From Chloroflexota bacterium (GTDB lineage Bacteria; Chloroflexota; Chloroflexia; DAOUBH01): a DNA stretch of 64,000 nucleotides. The stretch covers positions 27,170-91,169 of the forward strand of contig DAOUBH010000022.1 of NCBI GenBank assembly GCA_034432775.1, read 5' to 3'. Under the pieces are notes generated by a model that was not told the origin of the DNA, made no database searches, and saw only the letters and a program-made list of their open reading frames with translations. The first letter of the stretch is position 1. Every line of letters starts with the position of its first letter. This document shows, piece by piece, positions 3,617 through 56,793 of the stretch. The translations under genes were made by a program, and so were the position numbers.

Positions 3617-3934
3617 AAACAGATAAAGCGCCAGCCATGCACCCCCTGTCGACCCAGCCCTTCCTGCTTACCCGTGCTGGCTGACTCCGACCAGGTTTCC
3701 CCACGGCGCCCAGGATTGCCCGCTTACCGTTGCTTCCTTCCGGACCTGGCGGGGTTCACGGGATCCTGCCGCGTAGGACCCAGCCTTCAACGTCGCCCGG
3801 CACGGGCAGTCCAACAAGAACCGGCCTCGAGGGGGACTTCGACCCCGCTACAGCGGATTGCGGGTACAGGGCACCGCTAGCTCCCCGTCTAGCATGGCTG
3901 GCATATCCATTATAACTGGACCCGCGGTCATCGG

Positions 3935-4795
3935 CTATCTTGCCGAGAGGACCGCTATGCCCGCGACCATAAGGGCCGATCCTGCCAGCTTCGAAATGGT
4001 GCGGCCCTCCTCCAGCCCCTTCGCCCCTAGTAGAACACCGAAAACTATGCCGATTTCCCTGGCTGGAGCCACATAGCTCACAGGGGCCATGGACATCGCC
4101 ATCAACACCAATATGTAGGCCAGAGGAGATAGCAAGCCAACCGCCAGAACTTCCCTCCGATGGCTACGCCACTCGCTAATTACCTTCTTCCGCGACACCA
4201 GGGCTAAGGGGGTCAACAGGAGGACCCTGCCCACATCAGCAGCGTAGTTTTGCAGGAGCGGTGGTGTGAGCAGTACACCCACTGCATATTTATCCCAAAC
4301 TGTATACGTCCCAATGAGGCAGGCAATTGCCAACCCGAATAACACACCTGGTCGGTCCACTGGATTCTGCCTGGCGGCCGACCAACCTGACACTAGCACA
4401 GCCCCGGACAGTACCATGAGAGCCCCCAGCAAGTTTTCAAATCCAGGACGCTCTCCGATAAAAGCTGTTGCCATAGCCGTCGCCATCAAAGCCCCCAACC
4501 CACGGGCTAAAGGATATACCACAGACAGGTGAGCTTCCTGGTAGCCGCGCAGCAGCGTGCAATAGTACAGGCTATGCAGCACCCCTGCCCCAGCCATAAA
4601 CAGTAGGCTGTGAGGCCAGGTACCACCGCCTACGACCCAGAGGGTAGCCAGGGCCATGGGCAGGTACGCAACAGTTGCCCACAGGCTGAAGAGCCAGACA
4701 AAACCAACAACCATGCCAGCCCTTCGCGCCAGATAATTCCAGCTGGCATGGCACAGTGCCGAAGCAAGAATCAAAAACAAAGGTCCTAGATGCAT
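3935..4795 (-). CDS. EamA/DMT-family membrane transporter
   Basis: 286-aa polytopic hydrophobic protein with two-repeat architecture typical of drug/metabolite transporters. Confidence 0.6.
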   Translation of the reverse strand: MHLGPLFLILASALCHASWNYLARRAGMVVGFVWLFSLWATVAYLPMALATLWVVGGGTWPHSLLFMAGAGVLHSLYYCTLLRGYQEAHLSVVYPLARGLGALMATAMATAFIGERPGFENLLGALMVLSGAVLVSGWSAARQNPVDRPGVLFGLAIACLIGTYTVWDKYAVGVLLTPPLLQNYAADVGRVLLLTPLALVSRKKVISEWRSHRREVLAVGLLSPLAYILVLMAMSMAPVSYVAPAREIGIVFGVLLGAKGLEEGRTISKLAGSALMVAGIAVLSAR

Positions 4796-4837: not shown

Positions 4838-6175
4838 TCAGATCCCAGTTAAGGTCGCGAGGTCCTCAGGACGATCTACATCGACCAGTATGCCAGGATC
4901 GTTCACAGTTATCTCAACCACGGCCTCGGGCCACCGTGCTGCCACCTGCCGCCCACCAACATCCCCCTTTAAAGCAGAGAGCTCGGCGAAGAACTTCCGC
5001 GGAAAGAGCACGGGGTTACCCCGGCTGCCCTCAAACACCGGCACAATAATGCTCTCCGGATGATCCCTGTGGCTCCTCAACAGAAGGTCCACAGTGCTAG
5101 ACTGCAAAAGAGGCTGGTCTCCCAAGCAGAAAAGGACCGCTTCAACACCTGGATCGAGGGCGCCTAAACCTGCGCGCACGCTGCTGGCCAGCCCCTCGGC
5201 CCAATCACTATTCTCGACGAAGGTTATCGGTAGCCCCTGCAGCACCCGCCTGAGCTGATCGGCCTGGTACCCTCCCACTACAACGACTTCGCCCACCTCG
5301 GTGTTCAAGACGATTTTAACGCTCCTGCGAGCCATGGGCACCCCGTCTATCTCAGCCAGCTGCTTGGCACCCCCGAAACGTCTCCCCTGCCCCGCTGCCA
5401 GCAGCACAGCCGCCTTTCGACGGTCCACGGCTTCAATGCTGTCCCATGCTACAAGCAGCACCCCGAAAACCCCTGGCCGCGACAGCACCCAATGGGCGAA
5501 GTCCAGAGCCACCCGTCTATCCACAAGATTCACCTTGTTCAGCACCACCCATACGCGGGCCTGGCGTGGGACCCCCTTAAGACCGCCTTCGGGGTGGGTG
5601 ACAGCCAGCGCCACGATCTCCGGGGTGAGCTCATGGCCCTCCTTGAGACCCGTAAGGGACACGAAGGCTTCAAGGCGATGGACGACCTCGTCGGAAAGAG
5701 GCATGTTCAGAGCATCGGCGCCAACCAATACCAGTACCTTGTGGGACTTGGAAGGTATCACAGGCTCGTGCTCTGCTGGCACCTTGAGCGGCCTCCTGCG
5801 CGCCCCATCGCCCTCTACAACGGTGAGGTCCACGCCCGCTAAGCCCGCCAAAGTCTCGACTTCTTCGGGCTTTAGCCCATGAAGCTTATCATCCCTGATG
5901 CGGCTACCGACCACGGTGACATGGCCGTGACGTTGCAACCCGTCAAGTACCGTACCTTGGACGTCTTTGCTCTCATCAGCAATCACAAGAAAGGGACTTT
6001 GTGACTTGCCGGGCATCGAAATATTGGTGGTGGTAGTGGTCAATACCTTCCACCCCCTGGACGCCGCCTCGGCTGCCAGCCGAAACATCACTGTGGTCTT
6101 GCCACCCCCGCCCACCAACGTCACAATGTCGCCCCGGCGTACGTCCAGGGCCTCCATCAGAGTGGCGTAGTCCAT
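4838..6175 (-). CDS. fusion: YqeC-like selenium-dependent molybdenum hydroxylase accessory domain + MocA-like molybdenum cofactor cytidylyltransferase domain
   Basis: N-terminal half has VTLVGGGGKTT P-loop and VLTTTTT; C-terminal half has LLAAGQGRRFGGAK, NSDWAEGLASSVRAG, CLGDQPLL, SRGNPVLFP, VDVDRPEDL, matching the MocA/MobA nucleotidyltransferase fold. Confidence 0.65.
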   Translation of the reverse strand: MDYATLMEALDVRRGDIVTLVGGGGKTTVMFRLAAEAASRGWKVLTTTTTNISMPGKSQSPFLVIADESKDVQGTVLDGLQRHGHVTVVGSRIRDDKLHGLKPEEVETLAGLAGVDLTVVEGDGARRRPLKVPAEHEPVIPSKSHKVLVLVGADALNMPLSDEVVHRLEAFVSLTGLKEGHELTPEIVALAVTHPEGGLKGVPRQARVWVVLNKVNLVDRRVALDFAHWVLSRPGVFGVLLVAWDSIEAVDRRKAAVLLAAGQGRRFGGAKQLAEIDGVPMARRSVKIVLNTEVGEVVVVGGYQADQLRRVLQGLPITFVENSDWAEGLASSVRAGLGALDPGVEAVLFCLGDQPLLQSSTVDLLLRSHRDHPESIIVPVFEGSRGNPVLFPRKFFAELSALKGDVGGRQVAARWPEAVVEITVNDPGILVDVDRPEDLATLTGI

Positions 6176-6359
6176 CGGCCTACATTCCGGTATGGGTGTA
6201 CTAATTATCCAGCAGGATTATAATTCTTCAAAACCACGGGAGCAGCAAGAAGACGGAGCTTAATCAGTCTATCCCACCATGGAAGTCCGCATCGCGTCAG
6301 TTCTGCTGCTGAAACAGCCCTTAGAGCCACCCGCTGCAGCAGACAAGGTAAGCTGACCG

Positions 6360-11612: not shown

Positions 11613-12298
11613 TCTTCGACCTCTCCTCGAAAACCCAGCCGTGCATTATACCCCACACTCACGAGAAGCCCGCCCAGCTGCCCGTGCGAATTTGGCCAGA
11701 ACCTTTGTGCAGCCGAGGCGAGCATACCTCCGGTAATACCTAGCAGAGCAAGAAGGGACAGCATTGAATCTTCCTGCTTGGGGAGATAAAACTAAACGCA
11801 AGGCTCAGTGTATGCCCCAGCCCACGTTCAAGTTCGGCCGTGCAGGCTAGAGCGACTAGCATTTTTTTCTCCAGTGGGTCCCACCCTCGGGCCTCATCGG
11901 CTGCGAGAATACCTTAAAAAATTCTAGGACGTGGCCTATCTTCCCCCAGCTAACAACTATCGTATCGGTATGTAGTTCCGCAGAATCTGAGCTCTTGGCG
12001 CGCGTACGCCCGTGTACGATTGAAGGGCAGTGCCTACTGCCAGACAAGTCAAGCACTGTCAGGGACCTGCACAGTTAACACGAGGGCAGGAAGACGAAAA
12101 CCGATGGACGTATAGGGTTCGCGGTACGGGCAGCCTCCGAGCTTCGAATGATACCTTTAACCCGTTATATACATTGGTATATTGCCGTTAAATTCTGACG
12201 CAATCTTAAAAGATGCTACGCATAATGAAACAAGTAGGCTTTTGCACTTTCAACTCTGGTACAAAGACTTATCATGCCACAGGCGGGAGTGGCGGAGC

Positions 12299-15061
12299 AT
12301 GTCCGTGGTGTTTAAACCGGAAGTGAAGTGGGTACCAAGTTACTGTTATCAATGCAACGCGGGCGGACCAGATCTATTGCGCGTTAAGGTAGTAGACGGG
12401 GTAGCAGTAGGACTAGAGGGCAACCTTGATTTTGCTAGTGTCCATCCAGGCGGGGCAAAAGTGTGCGTCAAAGCATATGGGCTAATTCAGAAACATTATA
12501 ACCCAAATCGCGTCAAGGCCCCGCTGAAACGCACGAATCCTAAAAAGGGTCTGGACGAGGACCCTGGTTTCGTAGAGATCACATGGGATGAAGCCATCGA
12601 ACTGTGGGCCCAGAAACTCCTTGAGGTCAGGAGTCGAGGCATAGTAGACGAGAACGGTTATCCACGTGTCGCCTTCGCTGAGGGGTCTGATGGTGTTTGC
12701 CCTTCGTATTATGGCACCCTGCCAGTGATTTTCGGTGGCCTCTCACAGGCTCTAGGGCTCCCTCCCGGGATCTGGGGACCTACCGAATTTACCATGGCGC
12801 AAGGGGGCGGCGTGAAGTGTTACCACACCGAGCATCTGCTTGGGGAGCTGTGGCACAAAGGCTTCACGTGTGCTCAAGATACCCCACTCTGTGATTACAT
12901 CATTGCCATTGGCAGAAGTGACGACACGTCCTTCGGCGTCACGGGAGCGAAGCGCCAGGCTGAGGCCAGAGCCAGGGGATGGAAAAGGGTCCAAGTAGAG
13001 CCACACCTATCGGTAACCGGAGCTACATCTGACCGATGGGTCCCCATAAGGCCCGAGACCGATCATGCATTTCTTTTCGCTATGATCCATGTTGTCCTTC
13101 ACGAAATGAATTGGGCTGAAGTGTGTGACATCCACTTCTTGAAAACGATGACCAATAGCTCCTATCTGGTTGCGCCCGATGGCTACTTTCTGCGAGACCC
13201 GGTGTCCGAAAAGCCGCTAGTGTGGGACACCGTGGACCGAGCCGCCAAACCCTTCGATAGGGACGTGAAGGATCCCGCACTTGAAGGTGAATACGAGGTC
13301 GCCGGGATCACCCTTGGCCCAGACTCCAAAAGAAGCAGATTCGACCGCGTTTCGGTCAAGCCAGCCTTTCAACTGCTCATAGAACACGTGAAGACGTACA
13401 CGCCGGAGTGGGCATCAGAGATCTGCGATGTTCCTCCGCAAACCATTAGGGAACTGACGCATGAGTTCATTAGCCATGCAAGAGTAGGAGCAACCATCAC
13501 CGTCGACGGCATTGAAATGCCCTATAGGCCAGTGTTCATTGCCCTCGGCAAGACCCAGAATAACGGATGGGGCTCCATGCAGTGCGTCTGGGCAGCCCAC
13601 GTTTTGCAAATGCTCGTCGGCTCGTTGGAAGTACCTGGGGGACACTTAGGGACCCGGGTTCTGTTCTCAGGCCCGCCCAGAAGAACAGCTGATGGATTTC
13701 TCGAGTATCCCTTCAACCCGACAGACAAGGAGAACTGGCGGTTTCCTCCTGGCCGTAGGGATGGTGTGCCATCCCTCTGTCCACTGACAGGACCTTTTCT
13801 GGGCCCCATGCATCTGGGGTGGAAATGGACCGTGGACCCACCTCCACACTGGCCGGCTCCGAGCGTACCCGACATATTGATCACCTACAAGGTGAACCCG
13901 GTCATCTCGCAGTTCGATACACCAACTATCGTGGAGGTACTTCGCAGGATCCCCTTCCATGTGGCGTTTGCCTATACCCTGGACGAAACAGCTTGGTTCG
14001 CGGATCTCGTGCTACCAGAAGATGGAGACCTGGAAGCACTGCAGGTTTTCCCCATCGGCGCTACAACCTTTATGGAGAACTTTTGGGAGCATGTCGGACT
14101 CGCCATAAAGCAGCCTGCAGTACCACGGGCGAATAACACGCGGAACATTACCGACATAGCGACCGACTTGGCGGAAAAACTAGGAATGCTGGCTGCCTAC
14201 AACGAGGCCCTAAACCACGGCGCCTTCCTTGGATTTGTCTTGAAGGATACCCCGCACGAATTACAGCCAGACAAGAAATACACAGCGGAAGAGATCTATG
14301 ACCGAATCTGTAAGGTAGCTACTTACAACCTCAGTAGGGGATCGGAGGAATTCGGATTGGAGTGGTTTAAGGAAAAGGGAGCCTTCTTCGTTCCTTTCCC
14401 CAAGGTCGGTCCAGGGATAAGCCTGGGCCCGATTTACATGCGTCCATGGTACCTTTACCCCTACATGCGCCAGTCTGGCATCCGCTTCGAGCTCCCCTAC
14501 CAGGAAAGGTTGAAGAGGATCGGTGAAGAGCTTCAAGCACGCATCAGCGAGGCCAAGATAGACTGGTGGCAGGCACAGGCACACGAATACCAGGCATTGC
14601 CGAAATGGCACAGTACCAGCACAATCATCGACGATGTTATTGCCAAACGTTACGGGAAAAACCCAAATGACTACCCATTTTGGCTTCTTGCTACCCGAAG
14701 CATGCAATATGCTTGGGGATCCAACATAGCAGTTCCGCAGATGCATGAAGTAGCCGAGCGCGTGTTGGGTCACACGTGGGTTCAGATGAGCACCCAAGCG
14801 GGCAGGCTTCTCGGAATTAAGGATGGGGACGAAGTGTGGATTGAGTCTGCATATGGCAAGGCGCGAGGGAGAGTTAAGCTGAGGGAGGGAATCCGAGCAG
14901 ATGTTGTGTTGACAACGCAGATGTATGGCCACGTGAAAACCCCGTTCGCTAAGGATCTCAGACTCCCAAACCTCAATCAGATAGCTCCAGCGCTAGTGGA
15001 GTTAACCGACGAAACTGGGGGTTCTAAGGATCATGTCAAAGTGAAGGTATATAAGCCCTAA
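12299..15061 (+). CDS. molybdopterin oxidoreductase catalytic subunit (DMSO reductase/MopB superfamily), no Tat signal
   Basis: ~920 aa; N-terminal C-x2-C-x3-G-x33-C (YCYQCNAGG...KVCVKAYG) at the position of the MopB FS0 cluster motif; no RRxFLK motif; ATG 12299 after GGGAG; long ORF from 12182 is likely upstream extension. Confidence 0.8.
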   Translation: MSVVFKPEVKWVPSYCYQCNAGGPDLLRVKVVDGVAVGLEGNLDFASVHPGGAKVCVKAYGLIQKHYNPNRVKAPLKRTNPKKGLDEDPGFVEITWDEAIELWAQKLLEVRSRGIVDENGYPRVAFAEGSDGVCPSYYGTLPVIFGGLSQALGLPPGIWGPTEFTMAQGGGVKCYHTEHLLGELWHKGFTCAQDTPLCDYIIAIGRSDDTSFGVTGAKRQAEARARGWKRVQVEPHLSVTGATSDRWVPIRPETDHAFLFAMIHVVLHEMNWAEVCDIHFLKTMTNSSYLVAPDGYFLRDPVSEKPLVWDTVDRAAKPFDRDVKDPALEGEYEVAGITLGPDSKRSRFDRVSVKPAFQLLIEHVKTYTPEWASEICDVPPQTIRELTHEFISHARVGATITVDGIEMPYRPVFIALGKTQNNGWGSMQCVWAAHVLQMLVGSLEVPGGHLGTRVLFSGPPRRTADGFLEYPFNPTDKENWRFPPGRRDGVPSLCPLTGPFLGPMHLGWKWTVDPPPHWPAPSVPDILITYKVNPVISQFDTPTIVEVLRRIPFHVAFAYTLDETAWFADLVLPEDGDLEALQVFPIGATTFMENFWEHVGLAIKQPAVPRANNTRNITDIATDLAEKLGMLAAYNEALNHGAFLGFVLKDTPHELQPDKKYTAEEIYDRICKVATYNLSRGSEEFGLEWFKEKGAFFVPFPKVGPGISLGPIYMRPWYLYPYMRQSGIRFELPYQERLKRIGEELQARISEAKIDWWQAQAHEYQALPKWHSTSTIIDDVIAKRYGKNPNDYPFWLLATRSMQYAWGSNIAVPQMHEVAERVLGHTWVQMSTQAGRLLGIKDGDEVWIESAYGKARGRVKLREGIRADVVLTTQMYGHVKTPFAKDLRLPNLNQIAPALVELTDETGGSKDHVKVKVYKP

Positions 15062-15082
15062 GACAAGGGGAGGGTACTTGCC

Positions 15083-15733
15083 GTGGCACGATGGGGAATG
15101 GCCATCGACCTCAGGAAATGCAACGGATGTCAGACGTGCACCGTAGCATGCAAGATCGAGAATTTCACCCCAAAGGGTTTGCTTTGGGGACAAGTTTACG
15201 ATTATGAGACCGGGCAGTATCCCACAGTCCAACGCCGCTTCCTTCCCGCCCTTTGTATGCACTGTGAAAGTCCGCCATGCAGAGACGTGTGCCCGACAGG
15301 CGCCACCAAAAAGAGAGAAGACGGAATCGTTTATGTCGATTATCAGAGGTGTACCGGTTGCCAGGCATGTGCCTTAGCCTGTCCGTACGAAGCGCGCTTC
15401 CTCTACACGGAACGGGATGGGTATTTTGACCGACGCAGAACCCCATACGAACAGTTCCCATACGAGTGGAGAGCACCATCGCAACGGTTTACGAACGGAA
15501 CCATGACGAAATGTACCTTCTGTATGCACCGGATAGATCAACACCCAAATAAGCGTCCAGGTATAGATCCGGAGGCCACACCTGCCTGCGTCGTTGCCTG
15601 TATCACCGGAGCACGGATCTTCGGTGATCTGGACGACTCAGAGAGCGAGATCAACAAGGTAATCCGGGAACGACGCGGCTTCACACTGCTGCCTGAGCTC
15701 GGGACTGGGCCTTCCGTGTATTACTTGCCCTAA
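15083..15733 (+). CDS. 4Fe-4S ferredoxin-type electron-transfer subunit of molybdopterin oxidoreductase
   Basis: Four Cys clusters: CNGCQTCTVACK, CMHCESPPCRDVCP, CTGCQACALACP, CTFCMH...CVVAC; GTG start 9 nt after GGAGG. Confidence 0.85.
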   Translation: MARWGMAIDLRKCNGCQTCTVACKIENFTPKGLLWGQVYDYETGQYPTVQRRFLPALCMHCESPPCRDVCPTGATKKREDGIVYVDYQRCTGCQACALACPYEARFLYTERDGYFDRRRTPYEQFPYEWRAPSQRFTNGTMTKCTFCMHRIDQHPNKRPGIDPEATPACVVACITGARIFGDLDDSESEINKVIRERRGFTLLPELGTGPSVYYLP

Positions 15734-15753
15734 AAGCGAAGCTCTAATAGGGT

Positions 15754-16605
15754 GTGTGGGAGGTAAAGGCAGTGATTTCCATCCATGGTCAGAGAAACTG
15801 GGGTTTCACGACAGCTCTGGCAATGTTCCTCGAGGGGAGCTGTGGCGCCACTACGGTAAGCGGAATACTTCTAGGCAATCTACCCATGGTAATACTTGGG
15901 GTAGCCCTCGGAATGGCAGCCGGCTTGATCCTTTTACTTGAGCTCGGAAATCCGAAAAATGCAATCTGGTTACTTGCAGGCATACGTCATGCTTGGATTT
16001 CGCGAGGTACTCTCCTACTACTGTTAGTCATTGTTTTTGGCCTTGCATACGCTCTCGTCGGCCTGCCAACTGTGGGCGCCCCGCCCGTCTTAAGCGTAGT
16101 CGCGGGTGTCACCGCTGGAATCGCAGGCCTCTTGCTGACACTGTACCCAGGGTTCCTGCTCGCTTCGTTCAAGCCCATACCGTTGTGGCATTCGGCCTTG
16201 TCGCCCATTCTCTCTTTCGGCATTAGCGCCCTAGGCGGTTTCGGCGTAACTTTGGTCATGTCCCCACTGGTAACTGTAAATGCAGTACAGATGACGATTC
16301 CTGCAGTGTCAGGTGCAGTGGTCTTTCAAGCCGTGGCGTGGTGGGCATTTATCGACACAGCGCTAAAAGGTAGCGTTACAGAATCCCACGGAGCTAGGGT
16401 GCTATTGGGGCTACCTGTCTTCTCAGCTGGGGCCATCGCGGTTGGCTTGGCATTACCTGGAGTAATCATGGTTTTAGCGTGGGCCGCAGGCGTTACATCA
16501 CTTCCGTTGTATGTCGTAGCAGGGGTATGTCTGCTTGCTGGAAGTCTAAGCGCTAGGTACGCCCTATTAAGGGCTGGTGTGCGATTGCGGTGGCAGCCGG
16601 CCTAG
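15754..16605 (+). CDS. integral membrane anchor subunit (NrfD/PsrC/DmsC-like) of molybdopterin oxidoreductase
   Basis: 283-aa protein with ~8 hydrophobic helices directly downstream of the catalytic and FeS subunits. Confidence 0.6.
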   Translation: MWEVKAVISIHGQRNWGFTTALAMFLEGSCGATTVSGILLGNLPMVILGVALGMAAGLILLLELGNPKNAIWLLAGIRHAWISRGTLLLLLVIVFGLAYALVGLPTVGAPPVLSVVAGVTAGIAGLLLTLYPGFLLASFKPIPLWHSALSPILSFGISALGGFGVTLVMSPLVTVNAVQMTIPAVSGAVVFQAVAWWAFIDTALKGSVTESHGARVLLGLPVFSAGAIAVGLALPGVIMVLAWAAGVTSLPLYVVAGVCLLAGSLSARYALLRAGVRLRWQPA

Positions 16606-18102: not shown

Positions 18103-18930
18103 ATGGCTGAAGGTGTCACAGCTGTTAAGGTCGAGCAGAAACCACGGCCTCGCGCAAACCTTAAGGACTACTACTATCCCGTGGCAGCTGCGATCGCGTT
18201 CCTTCTCTTGTGGGAGGGAATTGTCCACCTGCTGAATATCAAGCCCTACCTGCTGCCAGCACCGTCAAACATCCTTCAAAAGCTGACCGGCCAGTGGGGA
18301 ACCATCTGGGACTACACGCTCGTCACCGGATTCGAGGTGTTGCTAGGCTTCCTGCTGAGCATAATCGTGGGCATACCGTTGGGCATGGTCATATTCTATG
18401 TAAAGGCCCTGGAGAGGGTTATCTATCCCTTTCTAGTGGCATCTCAGACTATCCCCAAGGTAGCCATCGCACCACTTTTGGTGATCTGGTTCGGTTTCGG
18501 TCTTACGCCCAAGGTGATCGTGGCCTTCTTGATAGCCTTCTTCCCCATAGTGGTCGATACTGTGGTAGGGCTGAAAAGCACCCCTCCAGAGATGATCTAT
18601 CTAGTAAGATCCATGGGAGCCAACAGGCTCCAGACCTTCCTGAAGATCAGTTTGCCCAATGCCCTCCCCAATATATTCGGCGGCTTGAAGGTCGCCATCA
18701 CTTTGGCGGTAGTGGGTGCTGTGGTGGGAGAGTTCATAGGTGCCGATAGGGGCCTCGGTTACCTCCTTGTGGTCGCCAACGGCTACCTCGATACCCCCCT
18801 GGTCTTCGCTGGGATCATTGTCCTCAGCCTCATGGGCATATTTCTCTTCTTCGTCATTGAGATCATCGAACGCCTCCTAATGCCTTGGAGATCCGAAGAG
18901 CAGACGGAGATAGTCAGGGGGACCATGTGA
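18103..18930 (+). CDS. ABC transporter permease (NitT/TauT family)
   Basis: Polytopic membrane protein; EAA-like region RSMGANRLQTFLKISLPNALP. Confidence 0.85.
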   Translation: MAEGVTAVKVEQKPRPRANLKDYYYPVAAAIAFLLLWEGIVHLLNIKPYLLPAPSNILQKLTGQWGTIWDYTLVTGFEVLLGFLLSIIVGIPLGMVIFYVKALERVIYPFLVASQTIPKVAIAPLLVIWFGFGLTPKVIVAFLIAFFPIVVDTVVGLKSTPPEMIYLVRSMGANRLQTFLKISLPNALPNIFGGLKVAITLAVVGAVVGEFIGADRGLGYLLVVANGYLDTPLVFAGIIVLSLMGIFLFFVIEIIERLLMPWRSEEQTEIVRGTM

Positions 18931-20321
18931 GGCAGAAACACCAGCAGGAAGCAGATCTGCTCGTCCTGGGGGAATGGATCCTCCTGTCAGCAAACGATGC
19001 CCTACAACGGGGAGCCATAGCGGTACGGGACGGCCTTATAGTCGATGTTGGTCCCCAACGAGATGTTATGGAACGGTACCGCGCCAAGAGGGTCATCGGC
19101 GGCGCCGATAGGATCGTTGCTCCCGGGCTAATAAATACCCATACCCATCTCTTTCAGACCTTCCTCCGCGGATTGGGCGAAGGGCTGCCATTGCGCACCT
19201 GGGTCGAGCGAGTAACTACCCCTGCTGCCCTTGCCATGACCTGGGAAGACGCCTACCTGTCGGCTGCCCTGGGCCTCATCGAGGCCCTTCACTCCGGAAC
19301 TACGGCTGTCTTCGAGTATGGGTACGCCTTTCCAGATCCATCCCTGCACGAGGCCACCTTGAAAGCTTTCCTCGATGTGGGAGTGCGTGGCTGGTTGGGG
19401 ATAGGTGTCAACGATGCTGGGATTGAGTTCGGCGTCCATCCGGCATTCATTCAGACCGTCGATGAGGCTCTGAAGAAGGTGGACGATTTGCGTGTCGCGA
19501 TGGCCAGGCTTGGCCAGATGCCGGTCCAGTTAGCCCTCGTCTCGGGAAGCATCAGAGGCCTATCTTCCCAGGGCGTCAGGGCCTTCCATGGGTACGCAGA
19601 GGCCAACGGTCTACTCTATTCCCTCCACCTCAAAGAGATACCCCAGGACGACGAAACAGCCCTGCTGCGTTTCGGTACCAGGGCAGTGCCGTGGCTCGCT
19701 GATTGCGGGGTCCTCAAGCCTAATCTCCTCGCTGTCCACTGCGTGTGGCTCAACCAGGAGGACATAGACCTCCTGGCTGAGGGCCGCTCCTCTGTGTCCC
19801 ACAACCCCGTCAGCAACATGTATCTAGGTGCGGGGATAGCTCCAGTGGCAGAGTTGCTGCAACGTGGGATCGCAGTAGGCTTAGGCACCGACGGGCCAGC
19901 AAGCAACAACAGCATGGACATGCTCCAGACGCTGAAGTTCTCCATACTGGGACAGCGAGCCCGAAAGGCCTCGCCCGATATCATAACCTCGAGGGACGGC
20001 TTCCGCATGGCTACGGAGGACGCTGCCCGGGCCTTGGGGGTCGAGGGTCTTCTTGGACGCATCGCTCCTGGATATGTGGCCGATATTGTTGTTTTCCGCA
20101 CCGATACCTTCCAGGGAGTCCCTTGCCATGACCCCTACGCTACGTTAGCCTTCTCAGCCGGTTGTGGCTCCGTAGAGACCGTGATGGTCGGAGGGCGGAT
20201 CGTTCTAGAGGAGGGTCTGGTCAAGACCCTCGATGAAGCCGACATCGTGGCTAGGGCATCGACAGCAGCCAAGGATCTGGTCCAGCGAGCAGGCATACCC
20301 GCAGGAGTGTTCGTGAGGTGA
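18927..20321 (+). CDS. metal-dependent amidohydrolase (cytosine/guanine deaminase or chlorohydrolase-like)
   Basis: APGLINTHTHL metal-binding HxH, later HCVW and GLGTDGPASNN; GTG start overlaps permease stop (GTGA). Confidence 0.75.
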   Translation: MRQKHQQEADLLVLGEWILLSANDALQRGAIAVRDGLIVDVGPQRDVMERYRAKRVIGGADRIVAPGLINTHTHLFQTFLRGLGEGLPLRTWVERVTTPAALAMTWEDAYLSAALGLIEALHSGTTAVFEYGYAFPDPSLHEATLKAFLDVGVRGWLGIGVNDAGIEFGVHPAFIQTVDEALKKVDDLRVAMARLGQMPVQLALVSGSIRGLSSQGVRAFHGYAEANGLLYSLHLKEIPQDDETALLRFGTRAVPWLADCGVLKPNLLAVHCVWLNQEDIDLLAEGRSSVSHNPVSNMYLGAGIAPVAELLQRGIAVGLGTDGPASNNSMDMLQTLKFSILGQRARKASPDIITSRDGFRMATEDAARALGVEGLLGRIAPGYVADIVVFRTDTFQGVPCHDPYATLAFSAGCGSVETVMVGGRIVLEEGLVKTLDEADIVARASTAAKDLVQRAGIPAGVFVR

Positions 20322-21345
20322 TCTCGGGCATCACCATGAATCCCGATGCCGATCCCCAGGTGTTGAAAGCCATAGCCCGACAGGTGGAGGAGCTCGGATT
20401 CTCCTACTGCTACGTTGCCGACCAAGGCCTGAGTCGCGACGTATATGTGACACTGTCCAACCTGGCCGCCTCCACCACAAGCCTACGGTTGGGCCCTGGA
20501 ATCACTCACCCCTATGTGCGGCACCCGGCCGCCACAGCCGTGGCCATAGCGACCCTAGATGAGCTATCCCACCACAGGGCCTTCCTGGGCATAGGAGCCG
20601 GTGGCACCCGCGCCCTCGCCCCCTCAACATCGACAGAAGAGAGCCACTCCGCGCCTGCACCGAGGCAGTGGAAATTGCGCGACGGCTCTGGACCGGCCAA
20701 CCCGTAGACTTTTCCGGCCGCTACTTTCAGCTTAGAGGCGCCCGCATCAACTTTCCTTGCCGGCACAATATAGAGGTACACTGGGCTGCCCGGGGTCCCA
20801 AGATGCTACGCCTGGGCGGTGAACTGGCTGATGTAGTTTTCCTCCATGGAAACCCCCACAGCGAGATAGCTGAAGCTGTGCGCCATGTTCGGGCGGGAGC
20901 CCTTGAGGCCCAACGGAAAGTGAGGATTCACCTGGCACTGCCAATAATCTATGATCAGGCCTCCTTCGAGAGCGGACGCTTAAGGACAGCTTGCAGGTTG
21001 GTCGATCTCACTGAGGATGCCAGGAGGAGGCTGGACATATCCACACAGCTCCATTCCAGGATCAGGGAGCTGGTGCTATCGTCGCAGCTCGAGTCCGCTG
21101 CACAGCTTGTGGAGCCTGAACTGGTCAGGCAATTTGTAGTCGACGCCACAGACCCGGAGTCGCTTCGCGATCTGGCCAGGACCATAGCTTCTCTCAACTT
21201 GGACGGCTTTATAGTGGAGATCAGTAACCCGTACCTGGCTGCAACTATACTTCCCGTGGCCCATCAGGTCATCGCCAAGACCATGCAGCTGCTCAAGGAC
21301 CAAACTACTGGTAGTCCACAAACCTATCAGGGAGGTGTCCCATGA
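20318..21345 (+). pseudogene. F420-dependent LLM-class (luciferase-like/Mer-like) oxidoreductase, reading frame broken by apparent -1 frameshift in a C5 run (20619-20623)
   Basis: N-terminal frame ...LGPGITHPYVRHPAATAVAIATLDELSHHRAFLGIGAGG (Mer-like); C-terminal part continues in another frame as PLNIDRREPLRACTEAVEIARRLWTGQPVDFSG...; one extra C would restore GAGGTRALAPLNIDRREPL. Confidence 0.6.
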
Positions 21346-41019: not shown

Positions 41020-41712
41020 GTGAGCAAGGTTCGTAGACCCGTTCAGCAGCCAAAAGGCCGCGGTAGGAGCTCCATTGGTCCCTTATATGTGGCAGCAGCG
41101 GTGCTGATCGCCGTCGCCCTGGTCGGGGGCCTCATATTCTTCAGTACACCGCGCCCAACCCAGGTCCAGGACCTCACTGGCATTCCTTACCGCGGCACCG
41201 AGCTGGGCGATCCGAACGCTAAGGTCACAGTTACAGAGTATTCCGATTTTCGCTGACCATTCTGTGCCCGTTTCGCCCTAGGTGTGGGGCGGCAGATCAT
41301 AGAGGAATACGTTAGGTCAGGGAAGGTCAAATTCGTGTACCGCCAGTTTCCGGTACTGGGTCCGTCCTCGGTGGTCCTCGCCGAGGCCTCAGAATGTGCT
41401 GCTGACCAGGGAAAGTTCTGGCCCTTGCACGATGCCATCTTCGCCATAACGGCAGACGGAAGCGAGCCTCAGATACCTGCCGAAAGGATCAAACAGATTG
41501 CGTCGGGTCTGGGGCTGGTCATGACTACCTTCTCAGACTGCCTCGACAACCATAGGGCTCTGGATAGAGTCAACCAACAGTTGTCCGAAGGCCAGCAACG
41601 GGGAGTCCGCTCCACGCCCACCATATTCGTCAACGACCGTATGCTTGTGGGCCTACAAGATTACCAGACCTACAAGCAGGCTGTAGAGGAGCAGCTTGCT
41701 AAATCGAAATAG
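41020..41712 (+). CDS. DsbA-family thiol:disulfide oxidoreductase, candidate selenoprotein (in-frame UGA 41254-41256 at first position of CxxC)
   Basis: Same-frame ORFs joined by one TGA: ...EYSDFR-U-PFCARF...; downstream GKVKFVYRQFP, QGKFWPLHDAIF, GVRSTPTIFVND continue DsbA fold; N-terminal membrane anchor. Confidence 0.6.
41274..41291 (+). promoter_or_regulatory. candidate SECIS-like hairpin downstream of UGA
   Basis: cgccc-taggtgtg-gggcg stem-loop starting 18 nt after the UGA, G/U-rich loop; short stem, unverified. Confidence 0.3.
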
Positions 41713-54964: not shown

Positions 54965-55771
54965 TCAGCCAGATACCTTCCTGTAGAAGCAGGTCCTATA
55001 AGGCACCAGGCCCAATGCCCTCGGGGTTAGCAATATCTCTGTAGAACCCACAAAGAGGAAGCCCCCTGGTTTCAGTGAGGCCACGAAGCCTCTGTACACC
55101 CGGTCCTTCGCCTCAGGCGTAAAGTAGATCACGACGTTTCGACATACTATAAGATCGTAGGGCCCCCCATAAGGATCCCTCAAGAGATCGTGTTCCTTGA
55201 ACTTAACTTTGGTGCGCAAACGATCGCTAACCCAGTATGACCCCCGTCGCACCTCGAGATAATCGGAAAGGAACCTCTGAGGCACATTTCTTATGCATGT
55301 ATAGGAATACGGTCCCCCTGCCCGGGCGATCTGAAGGACCGAAGAGTCCACATCTGTAGCGAGGATGCTGTACCTAGCTTGCGGGTTGTGAGCATCGAGG
55401 AGCATGGCCAGGCTGTAAGGTTCCGCACCTACAGAACACCCTGCCGACCACACGCCTATGGAACCCGAACCTTCCAGCAGTACTGGAATGACCTCGTCTT
55501 CTAAGATTCGGTACTTCTCAGGGTCTCGGAAGAACTCACTTACGTTGATGGTGAGGAAATCCCGAAAGGCAGCACGCTGGCCGACATCCGACGCCAATTT
55601 CGAAGCTAGCTCATCGAGCGACCTCAAACCGTTTCTCGCAAGGTAGCCTTCCAACCTTCTCACCAGCTGGGACTCTCTGTAGCCCGACAGGTCTATCCCT
55701 AGGAGTGTGAGCACATCCCGCTGGAAACGCTTCAATTCTGTGCGTGCGACAGTTACCTGGCCACTGCCCAT
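54965..55771 (-). CDS. cheR: chemotaxis protein methyltransferase CheR
   Basis: SAM-binding VWSAGCSVGAEPYSLAM; 268 aa. Confidence 0.9.
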   Translation of the reverse strand: MGSGQVTVARTELKRFQRDVLTLLGIDLSGYRESQLVRRLEGYLARNGLRSLDELASKLASDVGQRAAFRDFLTINVSEFFRDPEKYRILEDEVIPVLLEGSGSIGVWSAGCSVGAEPYSLAMLLDAHNPQARYSILATDVDSSVLQIARAGGPYSYTCIRNVPQRFLSDYLEVRRGSYWVSDRLRTKVKFKEHDLLRDPYGGPYDLIVCRNVVIYFTPEAKDRVYRGFVASLKPGGFLFVGSTEILLTPRALGLVPYRTCFYRKVSG

Positions 55772-56793
55772 GATGCAAGCTCTACAAGCCTTTCAGCAAT
55801 TCTTGGCAACGGAACGACCTCGTCGGCAGCCCCAGCCTCTATGACGCTCCTCGGCATGCCGAAGACAACGCAGGTGGATTCGTCTTCCGCCAACACCTTC
55901 CCCCCTGCTCTGTGGATGGCCCTGGCCCCCTCTGCTCCGTCATTTCCCATGCCCGTCAGTACAGCAGCTACCGTCCTTCCACCGTAGTAGGATGCCAACG
56001 ATAGGAAAGTTACATCCACCGAGGGCCGAACGCCGTGGACCTTCGGTCCGCTTTCGAGGCGAACACGTCCCCTATCCACCACTAGGTGGATATCCCCCGG
56101 CGCCACGTAAACCTGCCCAGTCCGCAGCTCCTCGCCATGGGCTGCCTCCACTACTGGCAATGAAGAGGCCGCATCCAGGCGCTGGGCCAGTGCCCGTGTA
56201 AAGCCGGATGGCATATGTTGCACCACAACAACAGCGCAAGGAAGATCTCGGGGCAAGTGCGGGATCACCTCGTACAGTGCCCTTGGACCACCTGTAGAAG
56301 CTCCAATGGCTACCACGGCTTCGGCCGCGAGTCCAAGGCCGGGCGTAGACGCAAACGGTTTGCTTTCCGCCCTACGGACCGGCGTCTTATGCAGCCTGCT
56401 TCGAGCCGCGGCCTTAACTTTGGCAATGAGATCCTCGCCTAGAGTGACAATGCCCATGGCAGAACCATTCTGCGGCTTCGCTATGAAGTCCACCGCCCCC
56501 AACTCAAGAGCCCTAAGGGTCACTTCGGCACCTTCCCTGGTGTGGGAACTCAGCATAACCACAGGGGTGGGTCTATGTTCCATGATGCGTGCCAAGGCTT
56601 CCAAGCCGTCCATCACTGGCATATCCACGTCCAGAGTGACGACATCGGGCGCAAGGCTGATCACCTTTTCGACCGCCTCGGCCCCATTGGCTGCCGTATC
56701 CACCACCTGGATCTGCCGATCAGCCCCCAGGCGCCTGGATATGGCGTAGCGGATGAACGCCGAGTCGTCCACAACTAGAACCCGTACCCCCAT
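55753..56793 (-). CDS. cheB: chemotaxis response regulator protein-glutamate methylesterase CheB
   Basis: REC domain VLVVDDSAFIR then methylesterase domain IGASTGGPRAL. Confidence 0.9.
   Translation of the reverse strand: MGVRVLVVDDSAFIRYAISRRLGADRQIQVVDTAANGAEAVEKVISLAPDVVTLDVDMPVMDGLEALARIMEHRPTPVVMLSSHTREGAEVTLRALELGAVDFIAKPQNGSAMGIVTLGEDLIAKVKAAARSRLHKTPVRRAESKPFASTPGLGLAAEAVVAIGASTGGPRALYEVIPHLPRDLPCAVVVVQHMPSGFTRALAQRLDAASSLPVVEAAHGEELRTGQVYVAPGDIHLVVDRGRVRLESGPKVHGVRPSVDVTFLSLASYYGGRTVAAVLTGMGNDGAEGARAIHRAGGKVLAEDESTCVVFGMPRSVIEAGAADEVVPLPRIAERLVELASWAVAR

Follow-up and report, generated by a model that had tools for sequence, protein, structure and literature searches.

A 64,000-nucleotide stretch of a Chloroflexota genome (contig DAOUBH010000022.1, positions 27,170 to 91,169; hereafter the window) carries, at 4838..6175 on the minus strand, a complete gene that fuses a YqeC domain to a MocA-like nucleotidyltransferase domain in one 445-residue protein. 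We propose, with a probability of roughly 60%, that this protein is a bifunctional accessory factor in the maturation of xanthine-oxidase-family molybdenum hydroxylases, its C-terminal domain making molybdopterin cytosine dinucleotide (MCD) and its YqeC domain handing the product off to YqeB/XdhC. The proposal draws on the identities of the two domains and on a family-wide genomic linkage of the fusion to yqeB and hydroxylase genes. An initial annotation of this gene had placed it in the maturation of selenium-dependent hydroxylases. The identity of the protein and the hydroxylase-maturation pathway stood up in our analysis, but extending selenium to this organism's hydroxylases was overreach.

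The open reading frame (ORF) runs from an ATG to a stop codon and, with that stop included, fills 4838..6175 exactly; the plus-strand translation of the same interval is riddled with stops. Translation of the minus strand recovered the 445 residues and every motif that the initial annotation had quoted: VTLVGGGGKTT (residues 18–28), VLTTTTT (44–50), LLAAGQGRRFGGAK (258–271), NSDWAEGLASSVRAG, GDQPLL (352–357) and GNPVLFP. Pfam assigns residues 18–169 to YqeC (PF19842, E = 1.5e-42) and residues 256–414 to NTP_transf_3 (PF12804, E = 4.7e-40). Both matches are far above chance and, with those from NCBIfam, they bear out the description of the protein as a YqeC-type half joined to a MocA-type half. 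Support for the fusion also comes from homologues that are full-length and share both Pfam domains, and from an AlphaFold2 model. Comparison of 38 fusion homologues gave 39 invariant positions. The window protein keeps all of them, and both halves look catalytically intact.

The N-terminal half is a genuine YqeC domain. It spans residues 17–216 by the YqeC equivalog model TIGR03172 (5528..6127, minus strand), against which it scores 171.2 bits where the curated NCBIfam cutoff is 73.05, and it likewise passes PF19842 (145.7 against 27.6 bits). The match is thus to YqeC itself and not to a generic P-loop. The domain is 34% identical to E. coli YqeC by BLASTP (E = 4e-36) and aligns over its full length with the YqeC proteins that stand alone in Peptoclostridium acidaminophilum and Haloterrigena turkmenica, sharing with them the motifs GGGGKT (Walker A), TTTT, E(A/G)DG, KxPxxxEP, HR, GG..K and NK. 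A single deviation was found, at the nearly invariant A122, which is Gly in the window protein (EGDG, not EADG). Within the P-loop, GGGGKTT at residues 22–28 (6092..6112, minus strand), residues G22, G24, G25 and K26 are invariant in the 38 fusion homologues and in stand-alone YqeCs. Further invariants of this half among the fusion homologues are E121/D123/G124 and K131/P133/E137/P138. As a structural unit the domain extends to about residue 250 (down to 5426) and adopts a SIMIBI-class P-loop NTPase fold, a class that holds many NTPases of metal-centre and cofactor assembly (UreG, HypB, CooC, NifH and ApbC). Sequence and profile searches of the PDB for a solved YqeC structure returned only P-loop matches to FtsY/ArsA.

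Judged by its sequence relationships, the C-terminal domain (residues 256–440; 4856..5410, minus strand) is MocA-like rather than MobA-like. This MobA-superfamily domain is delimited by TIGR03310, PF12804 and structure matches. NCBIfam ranks MocA/YgfJ (TIGR03310) first at 155 bits, ahead of PucB (92 bits) and MobA (TIGR02665, 42.7 bits), and MobA models give just 29–43 bits. The nucleotide-binding motif LAAGxGxRFGxxK (residues 259–271; 5363..5401, minus strand) aligns with the corresponding motif of E. coli MocA and MobA, and the family shows no variation at its residues L259, A260, G262, R266, G268 and K271. It opens with LAAG; we take the E. coli equivalents to be LAGG in MobA and TAAG in MocA. 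The second motif, NSDWAEGLASSVRAG, pairs in the alignment with NPDYAQGLLTSVKAA of E. coli MocA and not with MobA. Farther along, the GDQP motif (residues 352–355; 5111..5122, minus strand), which carries the conserved Asp of MobA/MocA-type transferases, aligns with GDMP of E. coli MocA, and D353 and P355 are invariant. The closest solved structures found by Foldseek are 3d5n and Rv0371c (2we9), both MocA-related, with template modelling (TM) scores of ~0.9 on the target, against 0.76–0.79 for E. coli MobA. The domain would presumably be specific for cytidine triphosphate (CTP).

Given an alignment of homologues as input, AlphaFold2 modelled the full 445-residue chain with a predicted local distance difference test score (pLDDT) of 94.8 and a predicted TM score (pTM) of 0.88. 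A β-strand at residues 247–252 of the model runs straight into the first strand of the transferase (254–260), and for this reason we predict a single compact two-domain protein whose halves pack without a flexible tether. The same architecture is widespread. Among 5.8 billion proteins searched there were 665 matches, and each of the best 120 is full-length with the same two domains; among these 120 the nearest relatives are 64–65% identical and the remainder ~40%. The relatives come from Anaerolineae/Chloroflexi metagenome-assembled genomes and are labelled 'molybdenum cofactor cytidylyltransferase' by JGI and 'selenium cofactor biosynthesis protein YqeC' by NCBI. Scanning one genome per species, we found a full-length relative in at least 577 species, the majority of them Chloroflexota (Anaerolineae, Caldilineales, Ardenticatena and Promineifilaceae). 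Other carriers belong to Desulfatiglandales, Syntrophobacteraceae, Acidobacteriota and Bacillota, the last including an isolate, Neomoorella stamsii, whose protein aligns over residues 6–441 with 37% identity.

The fusion also has a split counterpart. On plasmid and megaplasmid records of haloarchaea and Peptoclostridium, yqeC and mocA are separate but adjacent and in the same order, with a 4-nt overlap in Peptoclostridium. Since the two genes adjoin in this order elsewhere, the window gene is a fusion of a conserved yqeC–mocA pair that remains unfused in haloarchaea and Clostridia. The split products of P. acidaminophilum and H. turkmenica are 31–33% (YqeC) and 31–42% (transferase) identical to the halves of the window protein. 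Unlike the fusion, they are two polypeptides, encoded amid yqeB, selD, TusA/DsrE, XdhC and hydroxylase subunit genes. In E. coli, yqeC (b2876) and mocA/ygfJ (b2877), which share the YqeC similarity and MocA-type motifs described above, are also neighbours, but they are separate and divergently transcribed.

Any novelty implied for this architecture falls away, as the same fusion was tabulated in 2008 and is present in public annotation. Zhang et al. 2008 (BMC Genomics 9:251; PMC2432076), who defined the selenium-cofactor trait by SelD, HP1 (YqeB) and HP2 (YqeC), reported MobA-related proteins 'even fused with HP1 or HP2'. Their Table 1 lists a Moorella thermoacetica HP2::COG2068 gene as a single fusion (2089404–2090771) beside HP1, XdhC and a Mo hydroxylase; HP1::MobA-related fusions are tabulated in Carboxydothermus, Dorea and Ruminococcus. 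The Moorella protein has the same two domains in the same order and a similar length (~455 residues). Its gene and that of Neomoorella lie beside yqeB, XdhC and a Mo hydroxylase, whereas the window gene stands alone. The window protein, to which no known protein is more than 65% identical, is therefore a fairly divergent new member of an already annotated architecture that has been on record since 2008, and as a genome feature it adds nothing beyond public annotation and the 2008 comparative study.

Genomic context across the family supports a role in hydroxylase maturation. With canonical selenium-cluster proteins as queries, we ran tblastn over the entire window and over 83 fusion loci, each taken with up to 10 kb on either side. 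The yqeB gene occurs in 41 of the 83 loci, always on the same strand as the fusion and in 33 of them within 300 nt, typically directly upstream. Genes on the hydroxylase side are also frequent: the xanthine-dehydrogenase (XDH)-family large subunit in 30 loci, the 2Fe-2S subunit in 26, the flavin adenine dinucleotide (FAD) subunit in 13 and XdhC in 12. SelD and MobB were found in none of the 83. In one locus (L003), yqeB overlaps the fusion start by 4 nt and its product passes the YqeB equivalog TIGR03309 (351.8 bits against a cutoff of 220). The YqeB proteins beside fusions are short and lack the additional XdhC-like N-terminal half of E. coli YqeB. Taken as a family, the fusions show tight linkage to yqeB and XDH-family operons, and this linkage argues for hydroxylase maturation. 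Operon order varies between lineages, with the linkage kept. Five loci from Acidobacteriota, Clostridia and Neomoorella (L031, L050, L058, L059 and L063) have yqeB just downstream of the fusion and the hydroxylase genes after yqeB. L058 resembles Peptoclostridium in having a MoeA-like 'molybdopterin-binding' gene that stops 13 nt short of the fusion.

In the proposed mechanism, the MocA-type domain would attach cytidine monophosphate from CTP to Mo-molybdopterin, yielding MCD. The adaptor role that we infer for YqeC would most likely consist of binding and hydrolysing a nucleoside triphosphate (NTP) in a hand-off step that gates or escorts the new MCD. YqeB/XdhC-type proteins would then receive MCD, add Se or S as its terminal ligand and load the cofactor into the apo-hydroxylase, and the client XDH-family apo-enzyme and its partners would be encoded elsewhere in the genome. 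Haft and Self (2008) proposed that selenium-dependent molybdenum hydroxylases have YqeB, YqeC and YgfJ as their accessory proteins. In C. difficile, where yqeC adjoins mocA, deletion of yqeB phenocopies deletion of selD on xanthine and urate (PMC11448449).

Several observations weigh against this assignment. The C-terminal domain falls below the MocA equivalog cutoff (155 against 186.45 bits) and aligns with E. coli MocA at only ~26% identity. The MocA label of the initial annotation therefore survives in part: MocA is the best-matching family and MocA-like is clearly preferred to MobA-like (155 against 43 bits), but the curated threshold that the YqeC half passes is missed by the transferase half. 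Within the 64 kb, tblastn found no match to XDH-family large subunit, 2Fe-2S, FAD, XdhC, YqeB, SelD or MoeA queries; a gene survey and a Pfam scan of the neighbours also found no hydroxylase gene, in agreement with the initial annotation, which had seen no hydroxylase structural gene here. The same search detected no yqeB, selD, xdhC or XDH-family gene at the locus of the 65%-identical relative (L002). Nor are these absences peculiar to the two: neither yqeB nor a hydroxylase gene was found in 11 of the 35 loci flanked on each side by 8 kb or more, and the window gene belongs to this stand-alone class, about one third of fully flanked fusion loci. From the literature, only SelD, YqeB and YqeC together mark the selenium-cofactor trait, YqeC alone being no accepted marker (Peng et al. 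2016, PMC5029168; 2022 review, PMC9312934). Deletion of yqeC in C. difficile gave no growth phenotype on purines (PMC11448449), and the literature, including a 2026 review of the molybdenum cofactor sulfido ligand and a 2025 dioxopurine preprint, assigns no biochemical function to any YqeC.

The initial annotation had further suggested that this organism uses selenium both as selenocysteine and as a labile ligand of the molybdenum cofactor, and the two parts of that claim fared differently. A thioredoxin/DsbA-like ORF at 41020..41712 (plus strand) reads through an in-frame TGA at 41254..41256 (...YSDFR-U-PFCARF..., UxxC for CxxC). About 17 nt downstream of the TGA lies a GC-rich hairpin with a GGUG loop, whose folding z-score is only −1.44. 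Read with Cys in place of selenocysteine, the product scores 157 bits against NF041057, 'Rcas_1661 family thioredoxin-like (seleno)lipoprotein', below the cutoff of 190. This is probably a selenoprotein gene of known type, clipped by ORF callers, and because the TGA-containing gene matches a (seleno)lipoprotein family, the organism probably uses selenocysteine. A selenoprotein gene would imply the presence of SelD, which does not in itself prove a selenium cofactor. The molybdenum-ligand part is a different matter: we infer selenium dependence of hydroxylase maturation here and do not regard it as demonstrated, because yqeB, selD, xdhC and hydroxylase genes were not found within the 64 kb. Two other Chloroflexota, Anaerolinea thermophila and Caldilinea aerophila, are listed as SelD+, SelA+, SelB+, YqeB+ and YqeC+ (Peng et al. 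2016, Table S1; PMC5029168).

In a selenium-independent alternative, the MCD that the fusion produces and hands on would be destined for ordinary sulfurated or CoxL-type hydroxylases. YqeC would then be no selenium factor but a general NTPase adaptor of the MCD branch, with a role comparable to that of MobB for MobA. It would accommodate the stand-alone position of the window gene and of the 11 fully flanked loci, as well as the silent yqeC deletion in C. difficile, where selD and yqeB deletions show a phenotype. According to the literature, YqeB or YqeC alone may serve processes unrelated to selenium. Moreover, YqeC is fused here to a nucleotidyltransferase and not to a selenium-handling protein, and MobA/MobB fusions exist as an NCBIfam family. 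The frequent direct adjacency of the fusion to bona fide yqeB genes weakens this alternative, which we consider somewhat unlikely.

We find it highly improbable that the C-terminal domain is instead a MobA-type guanylyltransferase supplying bis-molybdopterin guanine dinucleotide (bis-MGD) to a dimethyl sulfoxide (DMSO)-reductase-family enzyme encoded ~6 kb away. The window does hold such an enzyme, a molybdopterin oxidoreductase with a dinucleotide-binding domain and a 4Fe-4S subunit, and the missed MocA cutoff and the LAAG opening of the first motif would fit; yet MobA models score 29–43 bits where MocA scores 155, NSDWAEGLASSVRAG aligns with NPDYAQGLLTSVKAA of MocA and not with MobA, and the neighbours across the family are XDH-family and not DMSO-reductase-family genes. 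The oxidoreductase gene also lies on the opposite strand, with glycolysis and glyA genes in between. As its catalytic subunit (12182..15061) needs bis-MGD and not MCD, it is not the obvious client of the fusion protein. A spurious fusion, whether produced by misassembly or a frameshift or left by two neighbouring genes decaying into a pseudogene, has a negligible chance of being the right explanation. A single indel could in principle join two genes that are adjacent, and sometimes overlap by 4 nt, elsewhere. Against this stand an identical protein on an independent 2.2-kb Logan assembly contig (the sole other contig that has it), hundreds of full-length homologues of the same architecture in at least 577 species, the retention of all invariant residues and the confident compact fold predicted for the chain.

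The fusion bears on a standing question, namely how selenium-dependent hydroxylases acquire the labile selenium ligand at their molybdenum centre. That YqeC is so widely and rigidly joined to the MCD-forming transferase serves as a Rosetta-stone clue, pointing to an action of YqeC during dinucleotide formation or immediately afterwards. It is possible, and we suggest it tentatively, that MocA is the physical hub of a dedicated complex for maturing MCD hydroxylases, with YqeC the MCD-branch counterpart of MobB, an NTP-gated adaptor that hands MCD to YqeB/XdhC. The suggestion arises because fusions join MocA to YqeC in at least 577 species and to YqeB in other lineages (Zhang et al. 2008, PMC2432076). 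The MobA–MobB pair, fused in some bacteria (NF011056), similarly couples a dinucleotide-forming transferase of the MobA superfamily to a small SIMIBI-type P-loop NTPase. Beyond the P-loop, no homology between YqeC and MobB is detectable in sequence or fold. The MobB and YqeC NTPases are both dispensable in laboratory assays. Should MocA be such a hub, the roughly one third of genomes in which the fusion is unlinked from yqeB could mean that the NTPase step is not intrinsically selenium-specific, which would explain why yqeC deletion leaves purine growth unaffected and yqeB deletion does not. A naturally fused Chloroflexota protein, probably well behaved, could serve as a reagent for YqeC biochemistry.

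Around the fusion gene itself, the local neighbourhood is uninformative on function, because synteny with the window (gpmI, eno, glyA, 2-hydroxyacid dehydrogenase, fusion, EamA) is confined to L002, the 65%-identical relative, and the neighbours in other relatives are unrelated. The fusion stands between the 2-hydroxyacid dehydrogenase gene and a gene for an EamA-family transporter (3935..4795, minus strand), which begins 42 nt past the fusion stop on the same strand; this pairing is kept in L002 and not in more distant relatives. Upstream of the ATG, a 184-nt gap contains a weak candidate sigma-70-like promoter, TTGAAG-16-GATAAT (6204..6231, minus strand), from a consensus scan that gave 3 sites where 1.6 are expected in shuffles. 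Beyond the EamA gene lies a bacterial large signal recognition particle RNA (3635..3897, minus strand; full-length Rfam match, 195 bits).

Elsewhere in the window, the DMSO-reductase-family gene belongs to a three-gene cluster (12182..16605, plus strand) that encodes the 959-residue molybdopterin oxidoreductase, a 216-residue 4Fe-4S subunit and a 283-residue polytopic membrane protein with no family match. The catalytic subunit matches PhsA, QrcB and ArrA weakly, at 136 bits or less and far under their cutoffs. A tRNA-Ser(CGA) called by ARAGORN at 56012..56088 (minus strand) falls inside a 346-residue ORF on the same strand (55753..56793), which starts like the receiver domain of a response regulator; one of the two, tRNA or ORF, is spurious. 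An amidohydrolase gene (Amidohydro_1, E = 3e-51) adjoins ATP-binding cassette (ABC) transporter genes at 18885..21345 (plus strand), and this cluster is kept in L002 (1–1738), there accompanied by a luciferase-like monooxygenase gene.
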